DNA of 64,000 nt from Escherichia coli (GCF_024502345.1 NZ_JALDNN010000001.1), one strand, 5' to 3'; shown: positions 5,132-63,566, numbered from the stretch's first letter. Notes: a model not told the origin generated them from the sequence alone. Made by a program: numbers and translations.

Positions 5132-5695
5132 TTAGATTTTACCAACCAGGTCCAGAGACGGAGCCAGAGTTGCTTCACCTTCTTTCCATTTAGCCGGGCA
5201 AACTTCACCTGGGTGAGAAGCTACGTACTGTGCTGCTTTGATTTTACGCAGCAGGTCAGACGCGTCACGGCCAATGCCTTCAGCGGTAACTTCGATTGCC
5301 TGGATGATACCCTGCGGGTCAACAACGAAGGTCGCACGGTCAGCCAGACCTTCATCTTCACGCATGTTGTCGAAGTTACGGGTCAGGGCGCCAGTCGGGT
5401 CGCCGATCATCGCATATTTGATTTTAGCGATGGTTTCAGAGCTGCTGTGCCATGCTTTGTGGGTGAAGTGAGTATCGGTAGATACTGCGTATACGTCTAC
5501 GCCCAGTTTCTGCAGTTCTTCGTAGTGGTCAGCAACGTCACCCAGTTCGGTCGGGCATACGAAAGTAAAGTCAGCCGGGTAGAAGAAGAAGACGCTCCAG
5601 CGGCCTTCGGTATCTTTTTCGGTGATTTCGATGAATTCGCCGTTTTTGAATGCCTGGTTTTTAAAAGGTTTAATTTTGGTGTTAATCAAGGACAT
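5132..5695 (-). CDS. ahpC: Alkyl hydroperoxide reductase subunit C (2-Cys peroxiredoxin), 187 aa
   Basis: ORF 5132..5695; [51 protein letters not shown]... matches AhpC. Confidence 0.95.
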
Positions 5696-7021: not shown

Positions 7022-7924
7022 ATGGCCAATCTCTACGACTTGAAAAAGTTCGACTTAAATCTTCTTGTCATATTTGAGTGTATTTACCAGCATTTAAGCA
7101 TTAGCAAAGCTGCTGAATCACTATATATCACCCCATCAGCCGTGAGCCAGTCGTTACAACGCTTACGTGCGCAATTTAATGACCCTTTATTCATTCGCTC
7201 AGGAAAAGGTATCGCGCCGACGACAACAGGGTTGAATCTGCATCACCATCTTGAGAAAAATCTCAGAGGCCTTGAACAAACAATTAATATAGTCAATAAG
7301 TCCGAACTAAAGAAAAACTTTATTATCTACGGCCCTCAGCTCATTTCTTGCTCTAATAATAGTATGCTGATCCGCTGCCTACGGCAAGATGCCTCTGTCG
7401 AGATTGAGTGCCATGATATCCTCATGTCAGCAGAGAATGCTGAAGAACTGTTGGTTCACCGCAAAGCCGATCTGGTGATCACCCAAATGCCAGTGATCAG
7501 CCGTTCCGTCATTTGCATGCCATTGCATACGATTCGCAATACTCTCATTTGTAGTAATAGGCATCCACGAATTACTGACAATAGCACTTATGAACAAATT
7601 ATGGCAGAAGAGTTCACCCAATTAATATCTAAATCAGCAGGGGTTGATGATATTCAAATGGAAATAGACGAGAGATTTATGAATCGCAAAATTTCATTTC
7701 GTGGTTCCTCTTTGCTGACAATCATTAATAGCATTGCAGTTACAGATTTACTGGGAATAGTCCCCTATGAACTTTATAACTCCCACCGTGACTCTCTTAA
7801 TTTAAAAGAGATAAAACTAGAACATCCGTTACCTTCAATAAAGCCTTACATTTCCTATAATAAATCTTCTTTAAACAATCTGGTGTTCTCACGATTTATT
7901 GACCGTCTAAATGAGTGTTTTTGA
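7022..7924 (+). CDS. ybdO: LysR-family transcriptional regulator YbdO, 300 aa
   Basis: ORF 7022..7924; N-terminal helix-turn-helix (ISKAAESLYITPSAVSQSLQRLR) typical of LysR regulators; AT-rich, low-GC gene. Confidence 0.85.
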   Translation: MANLYDLKKFDLNLLVIFECIYQHLSISKAAESLYITPSAVSQSLQRLRAQFNDPLFIRSGKGIAPTTTGLNLHHHLEKNLRGLEQTINIVNKSELKKNFIIYGPQLISCSNNSMLIRCLRQDASVEIECHDILMSAENAEELLVHRKADLVITQMPVISRSVICMPLHTIRNTLICSNRHPRITDNSTYEQIMAEEFTQLISKSAGVDDIQMEIDERFMNRKISFRGSSLLTIINSIAVTDLLGIVPYELYNSHRDSLNLKEIKLEHPLPSIKPYISYNKSSLNNLVFSRFIDRLNECF

Positions 7925-8185
7925 TATATAACCTCAGACAGCTACTATAACTTTCACCTATTTATTCACAGCGCGAATGAAAAATAAAACACTCTGCTTT
8001 TCAGTGTTTACTTTATAATTAACAGTCTTATCTCACTGATCACCCTGTAACGTTCAGAGAGCGTCTTCAGATGTCTATTTATAAAATTCCTCTTCCGCTC
8101 AATATTCTGGAAGCTGCACGAGAGCGTATTACCTGGACACTCAACACCCTACCCCGCGTTTGTGTCTCATTTTCTGGCGGCAAAG

Positions 8186-9242
8186 GGCTTTGTTGAATAA
8201 ATCGAACTTTTGCTGAGTTGAAGGATCAGATCACGTATCTTCCCGACAACGCAGACCGTTCCGTGGCAAAGCAAAAGTTCAAAATCACCAACTGGCCCAC
8301 CTACAATAAAGCCCTCATCAACCGTGGCTCCATAACTTTCTGGCTGGATGATGAAGCTATTCAGGCCTGGTATGAGTCAGCAACACCTTCTTCACGAGGC
8401 AGACCTCAGCGCTATTCTGACCTTGCCATCACGACTGTGCTGGTCATTAAACGCGTATTCAGGCTGACCCTGCGCGCTGCGCAGGGCTTTATTGATTCCA
8501 TTTTTTCTCTGATGAACGTTCCGCTACGCTGCCCGGATTACAGCTGTGTCAGCAGGCGGGCAAAGTCGGTTAATGTCAGTTTCAAAACGCCCACCCGGGG
8601 TGAAATCGCACACCTGGTAATTGATTCCACCGGGCTGAAGGTCTTCGGTGAAGGCGAGTGGAAAGTCAAAAAGCATGGCCAGGAACGCCGCCGTATCTGG
8701 CGTAAGCTGCATCTCGCCGTTGACAGTAAAACACATGAAATCATCTGCGCTGACCTGTCGCTGAACAACGTTACGGACTCAGAGGCCTTCCCCGGGTTAA
8801 TCCGGCAAACCCACCGGAAAATCAGGTCAGCCGCCGCCGATGGCGCTTACGATACCCGGCTATGTCACGATGAACTGCGGCGTAAGAAAATCAGCGCGCT
8901 TATCCCTCCCCGAAAAGGTGCGGGTTACTGGCCCGGTGAATATGCAGACCGTAACCGTGCAGTGGCTAATCAGCGAATGACCGGGAGTAATGCGCGGTGG
9001 AAATGGACAACAGATTACAACCGTCGCTCGATAGCGGAAACGGCGATGTACCGGGTAAAACAGCTGTTCGGGGGTTCACTGACACTGCGTGACTACGATG
9101 GTCAGGTTGCAGAGGCTATGGCCCTGGTACGAGCGCTGAACAAAATGACGAAAGCAGGTATGCCTGAAAGCGTGCGTATTGCCTGAAAACACAACCCGCT
9201 ACGGGGGAGACTTACCCGAAATCTGATTTATTCAACAAAGCC
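8186..9242 (+). mobile_element. IS903-type insertion sequence (IS5 family), 1057 bp, with 18-bp terminal inverted repeats ggctttgttgaataaatc; 9-bp target duplication gcggcaaag at 8177-8185 and 9243-9251
   Basis: Terminal inverted repeats at 8186-8203 and 9225-9242; identical 9-bp direct repeats flank the element; one transposase ORF inside. Confidence 0.9.
8263..9186 (+). CDS. IS903 transposase (DDE, IS5 family); likely GTG start giving 307 aa (ORF track starts at TTG 8218)
   Basis: ORF 8218..9186; [38 protein letters not shown]... matches IS903/IS102 transposase. Confidence 0.85.
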   Translation: MAKQKFKITNWPTYNKALINRGSITFWLDDEAIQAWYESATPSSRGRPQRYSDLAITTVLVIKRVFRLTLRAAQGFIDSIFSLMNVPLRCPDYSCVSRRAKSVNVSFKTPTRGEIAHLVIDSTGLKVFGEGEWKVKKHGQERRRIWRKLHLAVDSKTHEIICADLSLNNVTDSEAFPGLIRQTHRKIRSAAADGAYDTRLCHDELRRKKISALIPPRKGAGYWPGEYADRNRAVANQRMTGSNARWKWTTDYNRRSIAETAMYRVKQLFGGSLTLRDYDGQVAEAMALVRALNKMTKAGMPESVRIA

Positions 9243-10329
9243 GCGGCAAAGACTCTGGTTTAATGCTGCATCTGACAGCCGAACTTGCCCGACAAATGGG
9301 CAAAAAAATCTGCGTTTTGTTTATCGACTGGGAGGCGCAATTCTCTTGCACCATTAACTATGTTCAGTCCCTGCGCGAGTTGTACACCGATGTCATCGAA
9401 GAGTTTTACTGGGTTGCGCTCCCGCTTACGACGCAAAATTCCCTTTCACAATACCAACCCGAATGGCAGTGCTGGGAACCTGATGTCGAATGGGTGCGTC
9501 AGCCCCCGCAAGATGCGATAACCGATCCTGACTTTTTCTGCTTTTACCAGCCAGGCATGACCTTCGAACAATTTGTACGTGAGTTTGCCGAATGGTTTTC
9601 ACAAAAACGTCCGGCGGCGATGATGATCGGCATCCGTGCGGATGAGTCCTACAACCGTTTTGTCGCCATCGCCAGTTTAAATAAACAACGTTTTGCCGAC
9701 GATAAACCCTGGACTACGGCCGCACCAGGCGGTCATAGCTGGTACATTTATCCCATTTACGACTGGAAAGTGGCTGATATCTGGACCTGGTATGCAAATC
9801 ATCAAAGTCTCTGCAACCCACTGTATAACCTAATGTATCAGGCAGGCGTTCCTCTGCGTCATATGCGAATTTGCGAACCTTTTGGCCCGGAGCAACGACA
9901 AGGATTATGGCTCTATCACGTTATCGAACCGGATCGCTGGGCTGCTATGTGCGCACGAGTCAGCGGGGTAAAAAGTGGCGGCATTTACGCCGGACATGAC
10001 AATCATTTCTATGGGCATCGGAAAATCCTCAAGCCAGAACATTTAGACTGGCAAGAATATGCATTATTGCTGCTCAATAGCATGCCGGAAAAAACAGCTG
10101 AGCATTACCGCAATAAAATCGCCATTTATTTGCACTGGTATCAGAAAAAAGGCATCGAGGTTCCACAAACCCAGCAAGGGGACATTGGCGCGAAAGATAT
10201 CCCCTCCTGGCGGCGGATATGCAAAGTTTTACTCAATAACGATTACTGGTGTCGGGCATTATCATTTAGTCCTACGAAAGCGAAGAACTATCAGCGTTAT
10301 AACAAACGGATAAAAGGAAAACGTCAGGA

Positions 10330-10959
10330 ATGGGGGATACTATGCAACAACGATTAACGCAGGATTTAACGCAATTTCTCGCCAGCTTGCCGGAAGATGA
10401 TCGCATCAAAGCGATTAATGAAATCCGCATGGCGATCCATCAGGTTAGCCCCTTTCGTGAAGAGCCAGTGGATTGCGTTCTGTGGGTTAAAAACAGCCAA
10501 CTTATGCCTAATGATTACAACCCAAACAACGTGGCACCACCCGAAAAAAAACTGCTGAAAAAATCCATTGAAATAGATGGTTTTACCCAACCCATTGTGG
10601 TCACGCATACGGATAAAAATGCCCTGGAAATCGTGGATGGTTTTCACCGCCATGAAATTGGTAAAGGCTCATCATCATTAAAATTACGCTTAAAAGGTTA
10701 TTTGCCGGTGACCTGTCTGGAAGGTACGCGTAATCAACGCATCGCCGCGACTATTCGTCATAATCGCGCTCGTGGACGCCATCAAATCACCGCCATGTCG
10801 GAAATCGTCCGTGAACTTAGCCAGTTGGGATGGGACGATAATAAAATTGGCAAAGAGCTGGGAATGGACAGCGACGAAGTGCTGCGCCTGAAGCAAATTA
10901 ACGGCCTGCAAGAGTTGTTTGCCGACCGTCAATATTCCCGCGCCTGGACGGTTAAATAG
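10330..10959 (+). CDS. ybdM: ParB/sulfiredoxin-like nuclease-domain protein YbdM, 209 aa
   Basis: ORF 10330..10959; overlaps the ybdN 3' end; ParB-like domain family. Confidence 0.85.
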   Translation: MGDTMQQRLTQDLTQFLASLPEDDRIKAINEIRMAIHQVSPFREEPVDCVLWVKNSQLMPNDYNPNNVAPPEKKLLKKSIEIDGFTQPIVVTHTDKNALEIVDGFHRHEIGKGSSSLKLRLKGYLPVTCLEGTRNQRIAATIRHNRARGRHQITAMSEIVRELSQLGWDDNKIGKELGMDSDEVLRLKQINGLQELFADRQYSRAWTVK

Positions 10960-60581: not shown

Positions 60582-60832
60582 ATGCGGGCGAAACTTCTGG
60601 GAATAGTTCTGACAACCCCTATTGCGATCAGCTCTTTTGCTTCTACCGAGACTATATCGTTTACTCCTGACAACATAAATGCGGACATTAGTCTTGGAAC
60701 TCTGAGCGGAAAAACAAAAGAGCGCGTTTATCTAGCTGAAGAAGGAGGCCGAAAAGTCAGTCAACTCGACTGGAAATTCAATAACGCTGCAATTATTAAA
60801 GGTGCAATTAATTGGGATTTGATGCCCCAGAT
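60582..60832 (+). pseudogene. ompT: Outer membrane protease OmpT, truncated after about codon 84 by IS903 (only the signal peptide and first about 60 mature residues remain)
   Basis: ORF 60582..60863; MRAKLLGIVLTTPIAISSFASTETISFTPDNINADISLGTLSGKTKERVYLAEEGGRKVSQLDWKFNNAAIIKGAINWDLMPQ then reads into the IS903 inverted repeat. Confidence 0.85.
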
Positions 60833-61889
60833 GGCTTTGTTGAATAAATCGAACTTTTGCTGAGTTGAAGGATCAGATCACGTATCTTCCCGACAACGCA
60901 GACCGTTCCGTGGCAAAGCAAAAGTTCAAAATCACCAACTGGCCCACCTACAATAAAGCCCTCATCAACCGTGGCTCCATAACTTTCTGGCTGGATGATG
61001 AAGCTATTCAGGCCTGGTATGAGTCAGCAACACCTTCTTCACGAGGCAGACCTCAGCGCTATTCTGACCTTGCCATCACGACTGTGCTGGTCATTAAACG
61101 CGTATTCAGGCTGACCCTGCGCGCTGCGCAGGGCTTTATTGATTCCATTTTTTCTCTGATGAACGTTCCGCTACGCTGCCCGGATTACAGCTGTGTCAGC
61201 AGGCGGGCAAAGTCGGTTAATGTCAGTTTCAAAACGCCCACCCGGGGTGAAATCGCACACCTGGTAATTGATTCCACCGGGCTGAAGGTCTTCGGTGAAG
61301 GCGAGTGGAAAGTCAAAAAGCATGGCCAGGAACGCCGCCGTATCTGGCGTAAGCTGCATCTCGCCGTTGACAGTAAAACACATGAAATCATCTGCGCTGA
61401 CCTGTCGCTGAACAACGTTACGGACTCAGAGGCCTTCCCCGGGTTAATCCGGCAAACCCACCGGAAAATCAGGTCAGCCGCCGCCGATGGCGCTTACGAT
61501 ACCCGGCTATGTCACGATGAACTGCGGCGTAAGAAAATCAGCGCGCTTATCCCTCCCCGAAAAGGTGCGGGTTACTGGCCCGGTGAATATGCAGACCGTA
61601 ACCGTGCAGTGGCTAATCAGCGAATGACCGGGAGTAATGCGCGGTGGAAATGGACAACAGATTACAACCGTCGCTCGATAGCGGAAACGGCGATGTACCG
61701 GGTAAAACAGCTGTTCGGGGGTTCACTGACACTGCGTGACTACGATGGTCAGGTTGCAGAGGCTATGGCCCTGGTACGAGCGCTGAACAAAATGACGAAA
61801 GCAGGTATGCCTGAAAGCGTGCGTATTGCCTGAAAACACAACCCGCTACGGGGGAGACTTACCCGAAATCTGATTTATTCAACAAAGCC
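60833..61889 (+). mobile_element. Second IS903-type element, 1057 bp, same orientation as the copy at 8186..9242 and apparently identical; no target-site duplication (flanks gccccagat / tcgctgaaa)
   Basis: Same 18-bp terminal inverted repeats at 60833-60850 and 61872-61889; left flank is ompT, right flank is the interior of an IS3-family element. Confidence 0.88.
60910..61833 (+). CDS. IS903 transposase (copy 2), 307 aa from GTG (ORF track 60865..61833)
   Basis: Translation identical to the transposase at 8263..9186. Confidence 0.85.
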
Positions 61890-62331: not shown

Positions 62332-62727
62332 ATGTCTAACACTAACGCCAATTTTGAGATGACCGGGATCCTGTTAGGGCAAGAAGTCCGTAAACGTAAA
62401 ACTCCTCAGGAGAAGATCGCCATTATCCAGCAGACGATGGAGCCGGGTATGAATGTCTCCCATGTCGCCCGCCTGCATGGTATCCAGCCCAGCCTGCTGT
62501 TTAAGTGGAAGAAGCAATATCAGGAAGGCAGCCTCACCGCCGTTGCGGCTGGAGAGGAAGTCGTTCCTGCTTCTGAGCTTACTGCTGCTCTGAAGCAGGT
62601 CCGGGAGCTTCAGCGCCTTCTGGGCAAGAAAACGATGGAAGTTGAGATCCTGAAAGAAGCCGTGGAGTACGGTCAGTCGCGAAAATGGATAGCGCACGCG
62701 CCCTTGTTGCCAAAGGACGGGGAATAG
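62332..62727 (+). CDS. IS2-group transposase OrfA (helix-turn-helix DNA-binding subunit), 131 aa
   Basis: ORF 62332..62727; clearly related to, but not identical with, IS2 InsC as I recall it (shared blocks [46 protein letters not shown]...LKEAVEYG). Confidence 0.8.
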
Positions 62728-63566
62728 CCATGGTCAGCCGGACCATGGGCGTGTCGCGTGCGCAACTGTCACTGCGGATTAACCGTTCTGCCGACTGGCA
62801 GGACAGGCGCTGTAACCGGCGTAATGAAGAAGCAGACGCAGAAATACTGTCGGCTATCCTCAACATTATCAGCGATATGCCGAGTTATGGTTATCGACGC
62901 GTGTGGGGCATCCTGCGCAAGCAACGTCGCACAGAGGGACAGCCACCTGTGAATGCCAAACGGCTTTACAGGATAATGAGCGAGCATAACCTGTTGTTGT
63001 TGCATCACAAACCAGAGCGACCGAAGCGTGAACATAAGGGCAAGATAGCGGTGGCAGAAAGCGATATGCGCTGGTGTTCAGATGGCTTCGAGTTCGGCTG
63101 CGACAACGGCGAAAAACTGCGGGTAACGTTCGCGCTGGACTGCTGCGACCGTGAGGCCATAGACTGGGCAGCAAGCACGGGAGGCTATGACAGTTCGACC
63201 GTGCAGGATGTGATGCTGAGGTCGGTGGAAAAGCGCTTCGGCGACAGGTTGCCCGACACAGCGGTGCAGTGGCTGACGGATAACGGTTCAGCGTATACCG
63301 CGTATGAAACGCGGAGGTTCGCGAGAGAGCTGAATCTGGAGCCCTGCACAACAGCGGTGAGCAGCCCGCAGAGTAATGGCATGGCCGAACGGTTCGTGAA
63401 AACGATGAAAGAAGACTATATCGCGTTCATGCCAAAACCGGATGTGAGAACAGCACTGCGAAACCTTGCAGTAGCGTTCACGCATTACAATGAAAACCAC
63501 CCGCACAGCGCGCTGGGATATCACTCCCCGAGGGAATACCGGCGGCAGCGGACATCGTTAACTTAA
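62685..63566 (+). CDS. IS2-group transposase OrfB (DDE integrase domain), 293 aa as an ORF; probably expressed as an OrfAB fusion by -1 frameshifting
   Basis: ORF 62685..63566 in the -1 frame relative to orfA with a 43-nt overlap; conserved [42 protein letters not shown] blocks. Confidence 0.8.

Follow-up and report, generated by a model that had tools for sequence, protein, structure and literature searches.

We examine here the ybdN-ybdM gene pair of Escherichia coli as it stands in a stretch of 64,000 nucleotides (GCF_024502345.1, NZ_JALDNN010000001.1), hereafter the window, in which ybdN is interrupted by an insertion sequence (IS) of the IS903 type. The local gene order is dsbG-citR(ybdO)-ybdN-ybdM-ybdL-hcxA, and citR, ybdM and the flanking genes are left untouched by the IS. 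The pair has already been described, under the names YbdNM and IbrAB, and the insertion is not novel in itself. We will particularly focus on what the loss of one gene means for a module whose two members are found together in bacteria of at least seven phyla and in phages. The positions of the features are collected in Table 1.

The IS903 insertion in ybdN

The element is 1,057 bp long and carries perfect 18-bp terminal inverted repeats at its two ends (GGCTTTGTTGAATAAATC, in inverted orientation), a sequence whose chance expectation in the window is 0.00. Two identical copies of a 9-bp target-site duplication, GCGGCAAAG, flank it. Its single transposase open reading frame (ORF), of 322 codons, encodes a DDE enzyme of the IS5 family (NF033579, 357 bits against a cut-off of 140; DDE_Tnp_1_5 and DDE_Tnp_1 domains). 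The ybdN gene, whose first base is 8071 (MSIYKIPLPL...), runs for 115 nucleotides before the interruption, which separates the first base of codon 39 from the other two, within the PP-loop S35-G-G-K-D-S40 (SGGK/DS). When the IS and one of the duplicates are removed in silico, the joining of 8071-8185 to 9252-10357 gives back an ORF of 1,221 nucleotides and a YbdN of 406 amino acids (aa), which is about 99% identical to the E. coli protein and differs at 4 residues from the commonest allele. The interruption of ybdN is one simple, clean IS903 transposition event, and the first-pass annotation was right to ascribe the disruption to this element.

The product of the ybdN 5' fragment has 38 native residues (...SFSGGK) followed by GLC and a stop, a stub of 41 residues, and the longest leftover ORF (9263-10357, 364 aa) begins at Met43 and does not include the PP-loop. 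The intact SGGKDS is found in the reconstructed gene only, being physically split by the IS in the window. In an alignment of 40 diverse homologues, 4 of them from phages, G37, K38 and S40 of this loop are invariant, and S35, G36 and D39 are nearly so. On this sequence evidence ybdN is here a null allele, because the split of the PP-loop leaves a stub and at best a truncated protein without the ATP-binding loop: the gene is a member of the YbdN/IbrA family by descent, but a pseudogene.

The 93-bp insertion junction of the window was found in none of the 5,426 complete E. coli genomes, and an identical copy of the IS, a kind of repeat that can mislead assemblers, is present elsewhere in the window. 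Both facts would suit an assembly or chimera artefact, which we nevertheless hold to be extremely improbable, since the perfect 9-bp duplication, the complete inverted repeats and the exact restoration of the frame are the signature of a real transposition. Another argument against an artefact comes from E. coli GD33 (NZ_CP076646.1; L001 4983-6039), where an IS903B is inserted at nucleotide 861 of ybdN and has its own 9-bp duplication, GCCGGACAT. The insertion of GD33 resembles that of the window in the element (4 of the 1,057 positions differ from the IS903B annotated there by RefSeq), in the target gene and in the length of the duplication, but it is an independent event because its site is different. 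The same gene of 1.2 kb has been struck twice separately by IS903. Two records cover at least 80% of the region: that of GD33, with its insertion at the different site, and that of E. coli DLI.5a, with an insertion in citR.

A second copy of IS903 stands at 60833-61889 of the window, in the same orientation and identical to the ybdN copy at all 1,057 positions, and the ybdN insertion is for this reason probably recent. This second copy truncates an ompT-like ORF (60582-60863, which runs into the IS). No 9-bp target duplication is seen in its flanks, CCCCAGAT and TCGCTGAAAG, and this suggests that one of the two sides has undergone an IS-associated deletion or rearrangement.

As for ybdM, it is uninterrupted. 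Its product of 209 aa differs at 2 residues from the common E. coli alleles, is 99% identical to the E. coli RefSeq 'IbrB-like domain-containing protein' and keeps all 20 invariant columns of an alignment of 52 family members. As annotated, ybdM probably starts four codons too soon, at ATG 10330, and ATG 10342 appears to be the conserved one, because the 205-aa products of most homologues, including that of Citrobacter, align from there and a Shine-Dalgarno-like GGGGGA is found four bases before it. The gene overlaps the end of ybdN (stop at 10357) by 28 nucleotides, or by 16 if it starts at ATG 10342. Both the integrity of ybdM and its overlap with ybdN had been noted in the first-pass annotation, and both hold.

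YbdN and YbdM as proteins and as a pair

The reconstructed YbdN matches the PAPS_reduct domain (PF01507; 56.3 bits against 22.5, E-value 5.5e-15) and DUF3440 (PF11922; 112.3 bits against 25, E-value 3e-32). Its AlphaFold model (predicted local distance difference test score, pLDDT, 89.7) matches CysH, adenosine phosphosulfate (APS) reductase and the PAPS domain of flavin adenine dinucleotide (FAD) synthase, and its fold is of the adenine-nucleotide alpha-hydrolase type, as in CysH. For the helical DUF3440 domain, of about 170 residues, there was no match among the PDB matches listed. RefSeq names the protein phosphoadenosine phosphosulfate (PAPS) reductase, and the domain match and the CysH-like fold agree with this name, as does the co-derepression of cys genes in a mutant of citR (PMC9068703). 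If YbdN were such an enzyme of sulfate assimilation, the insertion would affect sulfur metabolism. The curated CysH equivalogs, however, score it far under their cut-offs (TIGR02057, 34.8 against 254.2 bits; NF002537, 34 against 154 bits). CysH chemistry requires a catalytic C-terminal cysteine, and in the 40-sequence alignment the YbdN family has no cysteine that is invariant or nearly so. YbdN differs from CysH, APS reductase and the FAD-synthase domain also by its additional DUF3440 and by its genomic context. Indeed, its constant partner is a DNA-binding ParB-like protein rather than a thioredoxin or a sulfite reductase, and the family is abundant in phages beside DNA-handling genes. We give a role as PAPS reductase almost no credence. 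The same reasoning holds for DndC, whose equivalog (TIGR03183) gives YbdN 22.2 bits against a cut-off of 290.4. Because of these low scores and of the missing invariant cysteine, YbdN is to be regarded as neither a genuine PAPS reductase nor a DndC.

YbdM scores 24.6 bits for ParB_N (PF02195), just under the gathering score of 26.3, and the same family is precomputed for most of its homologues. By fold the case is clear: the model (pLDDT 89.0) retrieves with Foldseek the structures 7nfu (Noc, 3e-8), 6sdk (ParB, 1.5e-7) and 8qa9 (KorB, 7e-7), with alignments of 145-157 residues (E-values from 3e-8 to 1e-6) that cover the nucleotide-binding N-terminal domain and the helix-turn-helix (HTH). Sulfiredoxin (Srx) and SbnI are weaker matches. 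YbdM shares these two domains with the CTP-dependent DNA clamps ParB, Noc and KorB. In the place of their arginine-rich, CTP-binding GERRxRA box, however, it has DGFHR, which is nearer to DndB and sulfiredoxin; the motif RHNRARGxH is invariant and additional, and a C-terminal dimerisation domain is missing, the protein stopping soon after the HTH. The invariant motifs of the family are NPN, DGFHR, RHNRARGxH and LGMDxDExLRLKQ; within DGFHR, D103, G104 and R107 are invariant and H106 nearly invariant. The enteric copies carry in addition a two-helix N-terminal extension. The PAPS-reductase and ParB folds assigned to the two proteins in the first-pass annotation are thereby borne out, the second clearly by structure, beside a weak sequence match that stays just under the threshold. 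Among solved structures, the sequence search returned nothing closer than an E-value of 0.002.

Among the closest systems is that of IbrA and IbrB of E. coli ECOR-9, encoded in an 'immunoglobulin-binding regulator' island (Sandt, Hopper & Hill 2002, J Bacteriol 184:3640, as given in PMC7649339). There too, a gene with PAPS_reduct and DUF3440 domains is followed by an overlapping gene for an IbrB-like protein of the ParB fold. The homology, also stated in the first-pass annotation, is seen in the RefSeq name of YbdM ('IbrB-like') and in phage proteins annotated as IbrA and IbrB, which are 36% identical to YbdN and 48% to YbdM (37-48% for the phage IbrB proteins). The two pairs differ in their setting. 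In E. coli, ybdNM belongs to the core, with matches in 5,420-5,423 of the 5,426 genomes, and lies between citR and ybdL under the control of CitR, whereas the IbrAB-type copies are accessory, in islands and plasmids, beside fimbrial, autotransporter and PerC genes. Many E. coli strains carry such extra paralogous pairs; a genome can have as many as five places for the pair, and 118 places are on plasmids. The two accessory pairs that we inspected are 58% identical to YbdN and 57% to YbdM, and adjoin fimbrial operons, an S6 autotransporter peptidase and a PerC-family regulator. RefSeq calls their first gene phosphoadenosine phosphosulfate reductase, and only the second IbrB-like or ParB-family. 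From the PerC-adjacent context, which matches the ibrB-perC arrangement published in Shiga toxin-producing E. coli (PMC7649339), we infer that these pairs are of the IbrAB type, and they stand as a proxy for the ECOR-9 sequences. According to the same source, which summarises Sandt et al. 2002, the presence of ibrB enhances the expression of Eib, and what is known of IbrAB is genetic only: it activates the expression of prophage eib genes (PMC7649339). This phenotype has been shown for IbrAB only, not for YbdNM. In the literature that we searched, outside of which lies the original IbrAB paper, no biochemical characterisation of YbdN, YbdM, IbrA or IbrB was found.

The pairing itself was surveyed by scanning one genome per species with the family alignment, which gave 80 loci with a YbdN-like gene. 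In 79 of them an IbrB-like ORF lies directly downstream on the same strand (E-values from 1e-25 to 1e-82), starting from a few bases to about 400 bases past the end of the YbdN-like gene, and the 80th ends at a contig edge two bases past the match, so that the genes are adjacent in 79 of 79 testable loci. These span at least seven phyla (Proteobacteria, Bacteroidota, Firmicutes, Verrucomicrobiota, Actinobacteria, Campylobacterota and Lentisphaerae), with Escherichia, Hafnia, Edwardsiella, Erwinia, Bacteroides, Akkermansia, Helicobacter, Listeria, Clostridia, Rubneribacter and Lentisphaeria among the groups that carry them. In an annotated phage collection, a YbdN-like gene occurs in 224 records and a YbdM-like gene in 226, with nearly identical host breakdowns (Flavobacterium 90, Mycobacterium 60, Streptococcus 21, Arthrobacter 12, and others); about 225 phage genomes carry both. 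YbdN and YbdM match the phage protein families phrog_2302 (1.6e-76) and phrog_2159 (3.9e-69), respectively, and the genes are adjacent in the four phage families inspected, their order being reversed in Flavobacterium phage 2A. A single-protein scan of viral contigs returned one near-identical locus only. Judged by gene order, the pair is linked as tightly as any two-gene system, and its description as a conserved pair in the first-pass annotation is upheld.

Other genes recur beside the pair. Directly upstream of the YbdN-like gene, a SNF2-type helicase of about 415 aa is found in 18 of the 56 non-enteric loci, and also in Streptococcus phage CHPC1148 and Flavobacterium phage 2A. It often overlaps the IbrA-like gene, forming a recurrent three-gene cassette; the E. 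coli ybdNM stands without the helicase. In 24 of the 80 loci, mostly of Bacteroidota, the gene directly upstream encodes a conserved protein of about 135 aa with the motifs NYPF[KR]T, INNYY and W.RYVKM, for which the searches gave only a sub-threshold hint of GNAT (E-value 0.023) and no PHROG match. Two loci, L036 and L086, have both partners. The genes downstream of the pair are unrelated from locus to locus, and many of the chromosomal copies stand among housekeeping genes. In Faecalibacterium and actinobacterial (Mycobacterium) phages, the pair is immediately upstream of the terminase genes; in phage Gadjet it occupies the place expected for the small terminase subunit, and none is annotated there. 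PHROGs files the phage 'PAPS reductase' genes of the YbdN family as auxiliary metabolic genes, a filing that looks doubtful.

This context recalls systems that modify DNA. DndC/DndB, SspD/SspB and BrxP of BREX type 4 resemble YbdNM in combining a PP-loop ATP pyrophosphatase with a ParB/Srx protein bearing a DGxHR-type motif (DGFHR in YbdM), and they are likewise associated with phages and mobile elements. The intact pair could then be a covalent DNA-modification system, analogous to DndB/DndC, SspB/SspD or DpdB/DpdA, that marks or protects DNA in the conflict between phage and host, its transcriptional effects being secondary or specific to IbrAB. The shared pairing, the marginal partial matches to DndC and BrxP, the SNF2 partner in bacteria and phages, the strong phage families and the place beside the terminase all point this way, and we keep it as the main functional rival, though one rather less likely than not. 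YbdN is indeed far from DndC by score, has DUF3440 as its C-terminal domain instead, and belongs to a family without the invariant cysteines that an Fe-S cluster or persulfide chemistry would need. The neighbours of ybdNM are citR and ybdL, in place of the DndA, DndD and DndE partners, and near the loci surveyed no cysteine desulfurase, SMC-like ATPase or restriction partner was seen. The many copies among housekeeping genes also argue against DNA modification, and no modified base is reported for these hosts in the literature searched. Against PADLOC-DB 2.0, neither YbdN nor YbdM had a significant match; the marginal partial ones were DndC (2e-5), BrxP (1e-4) and MTase_II (7e-4), and the assignment of the pair to a known defence system was rejected on this ground.

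Expression of ybdM and the wider window

The ybdNM operon is repressed by CitR (YbdO), which binds upstream of citR-ybdNM, as established by chromatin immunoprecipitation-exonuclease (ChIP-exo) and RNA sequencing (PMC9068703), and the first-pass annotation was correct in calling the pair not undescribed. In the citR mutant, ybdN rises by 5.5 and ybdM by 2.5 log2-fold, with base means as low as 36 and 20 (PMC9068703). In the presumed promoter region, a consensus scan gave one weak sigma-70-like site (7921-7948), and the total number of sites is no higher than chance. What now precedes ybdM is the IS, followed by about 1.1 kb of ybdN that is probably not translated. The first-pass annotation had proposed to look for ybdM transcripts from an outward promoter of IS903, a proposal that finds no support, as the consensus scan (such scans being weak evidence) gave no promoter-like site at or near the right junction or anywhere from the right end of the IS to ybdM (9200-10330). 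An outward or hybrid promoter at that end was rejected as unsupported, with overall site counts at chance level. The orientation of the IS allows read-through from the ybdN promoter or from the transposase gene. No plus-strand terminator was found between the IS and ybdM, the only plus-strand hairpin (8468-8486) being inside the transposase ORF and having a poor T-tract. In Rho-dependent polarity, untranslated upstream sequence favors lower downstream expression. Because of the probably untranslated stretch that precedes it, ybdM is likely to be expressed less, through polarity, rather than more, through an outward promoter.

To judge from published data, YbdM may have some life of its own. 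According to PMC8764527, the protein is 29-fold up in cells with a CTX-M-15 plasmid, its overexpression costs 10% of the growth rate, the deletion of ybdM gives a fitness gain of 1-2%, and the authors call it completely uncharacterised. In E. coli DLI.5a (NZ_CP103972.1; L002 148-5187), a unit made of ISEcp1, blaCTX-M-14, a fragment of IS903B and a fragment of lamB is inserted in citR, directly upstream of an intact ybdNM; its position beside the pair is curious given the 29-fold rise of YbdM with the CTX-M-15 plasmid (PMC8764527). YbdM could work alone as a ParB-like DNA-binding regulator, in which case the IS would have removed an accessory function and the module would be only half inactivated. 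The response to the resistance plasmid and the cost of YbdM overexpression alone would fit such a regulator, as would the conservation of all the family-invariant residues, the HTH and N-terminal domain resembling KorB and Noc, and the ribosome-binding-like sequence that ybdM has of its own. We judge it unlikely, since adjacency in all testable loci and a near 1:1 ratio in phages indicate that neither gene is kept alone, and since YbdM has no C-terminal dimerisation domain of the kind found in autonomous ParB-type clamps.

Between the two identical, directly repeated copies of IS903 lie about 51.6 kb (9243-60832), from the 3' fragment of ybdN and ybdM to the truncated ompT, including cus and nfr genes. 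The two copies are a ready substrate for a deletion of this segment by homologous recombination, or for its movement as a composite element. Among the 5,426 complete RefSeq E. coli genomes, the best match to 36000-60832 is about 98.6% identical over 25 kb, unlike the flanks of ybdNM, which reach 99.7%; either the source strain has no close representative in this collection or the region is a mosaic. Just past the second IS903, at 62332-63566, is an IS3-family element with two overlapping ORFs (131 and 293 aa) that resemble IS2-like orfA and orfB, the far end of the window being an IS-rich, rearranged DLP12/ompT region.

Table 1. Positions of the features in the window and in the comparison loci (L numbers)
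Feature	Sequence	Position	Strand	Remarks
citR (ybdO), LysR-type repressor of ybdNM, intact	Window	7022-7924	+	300-aa ORF; NCBIfam CitR equivalog 463.5 bits against a cut-off of 400
citR-ybdN intergenic, presumed ybdNM promoter region	Window	7925-8070	+	AT-rich 146-bp spacer
ybdN 5' fragment (codons 1-38 and first base of codon 39)	Window	8071-8185	+	Ends in left GCGGCAAAG copy, 8177-8185
IS903-type insertion sequence (IS5 family, IS903 group)	Window	8186-9242	+	Left inverted repeat 8186-8203, transposase 8218-9186, right inverted repeat 9225-9242
Right copy of 9-bp target-site duplication GCGGCAAAG	Window	9243-9251	+	Identical to 8177-8185
ybdN 3' fragment (remainder of codon 39 to stop)	Window	9252-10357	+	Residual ORF from Met43 at 9263
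ybdM, IbrB-like ParB/Srx-fold and helix-turn-helix, intact	Window	10330-10959	+	209-aa ORF
SNF2 ORF ending at IbrA start	L028-L030, L032, L034, L039, L041, L045, L053, L063, L064, L067, L068, L071, L075, L077			
SNF2-type helicase in phage	L003	2258-3496		
SNF2-type helicase in phage	L004	1703-2926		
Partner of about 135 aa, example	L042	4597-4995		
Partner of about 135 aa, example	L049	2797-3195		
Partner of about 135 aa, example	L062	281-694		
Partner of about 135 aa, example	L069	4574-4999		
Phage pair beside terminase	L005	3501-7786		Faecalibacterium phage FP_Taranis
Phage pair beside terminase	L006	1069-4471		Mycobacterium phage Gadjet
Accessory paralogous pair	L088	6983-8832		E. coli A41 chromosome
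Accessory paralogous pair	L089	6989-8838		Plasmid pGF131-A

Possible action of the intact pair and meaning of its loss

Given that every testable genome has the two genes side by side and that phages also carry them together, YbdN and YbdM very probably act together, and the loss of YbdN would therefore disable the module though ybdM is intact. The first-pass annotation had called the module inactivated. This is literally true of ybdN, which is physically destroyed, and not of ybdM, so that the loss of the module is a consequence drawn from the strict pairing. Taken as a whole, the account of an IS903 null allele of ybdN beside an intact ybdM, with the paired module lost, seems to us likely. 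Since CitR normally keeps the operon almost silent, the loss of ybdN is here probably near-neutral.

Several points weigh against this account. The 29-fold rise of YbdM is given in the accessible part of PMC8764527 with no matching change of YbdN reported, and YbdM may act partly alone. The polarity on ybdM is itself deduced; the gene has its own GGGGGA before ATG 10342, and some of its expression could be sustained by transcripts that read through from the co-oriented transposase gene. Co-activation is the phenotype of a paralogue of 57-58% identity, and not of YbdNM. The accessible literature shows no enzymatic activity, substrate, DNA binding or interaction for YbdN or YbdM, and PADLOC, NCBIfam and the solved structures yield no closer functional anchor.

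How the intact module would work can be sketched tentatively, at somewhat less than even confidence. YbdM would be the DNA-recognising subunit, binding DNA through its HTH and using the nucleotide pocket of its ParB/Srx domain (DGFHR, RHNRARGxH), and it would position or control YbdN on a DNA-associated substrate. YbdN, a PP-loop ATP-pyrophosphatase of the N-type with the helical DUF3440, would be the catalytic subunit and would adenylate that substrate, the two proteins together altering the state of DNA or of a nucleoprotein. In enterobacteria, the pair would in this way activate silenced, horizontally acquired genes for surface proteins, in accordance with the published phenotype of IbrAB. 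In phages, it would act on the phage DNA, often with the SNF2 motor, around the time of packaging and beside the packaging genes. The covalent DNA modification discussed above is compatible with this sketch.

For the window itself, the finding carries little weight: a near-silent, non-essential gene has been turned into a pseudogene by an ordinary insertion. The source strain is nevertheless a natural ybdN knockout in which ybdM is kept, and it offers a background for asking what YbdM does without YbdN. For the family, the strict pairing, the roughly 225 phage genomes, in which the pair is often beside the terminase, the SNF2 and small partners and the absence of invariant cysteines suggest that IbrAB/YbdNM is a coherent DNA-acting system, and these features cast doubt on the phage 'PAPS reductase' genes as auxiliary genes of sulfur metabolism, the category given to them in PHROGs. 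One could go further and suppose, as a conjecture that we rate on the doubtful side, that the IbrA/IbrB family is an unrecognised, widespread and phage-derived DNA-acting system with a chemistry unlike that of Dnd, Ssp or Dpd. It may combine a ParB/Srx DNA-recognition subunit with a cysteine-less PP-loop adenylating enzyme, and may often enlist a small SNF2 helicase or, in Bacteroidota, the protein of about 135 aa. If this were true, many phage genes would be wrongly labelled as 'PAPS reductase / cysH', and the ybdN of the window would be a natural null allele, in the E. coli core copy, of the catalytic subunit.

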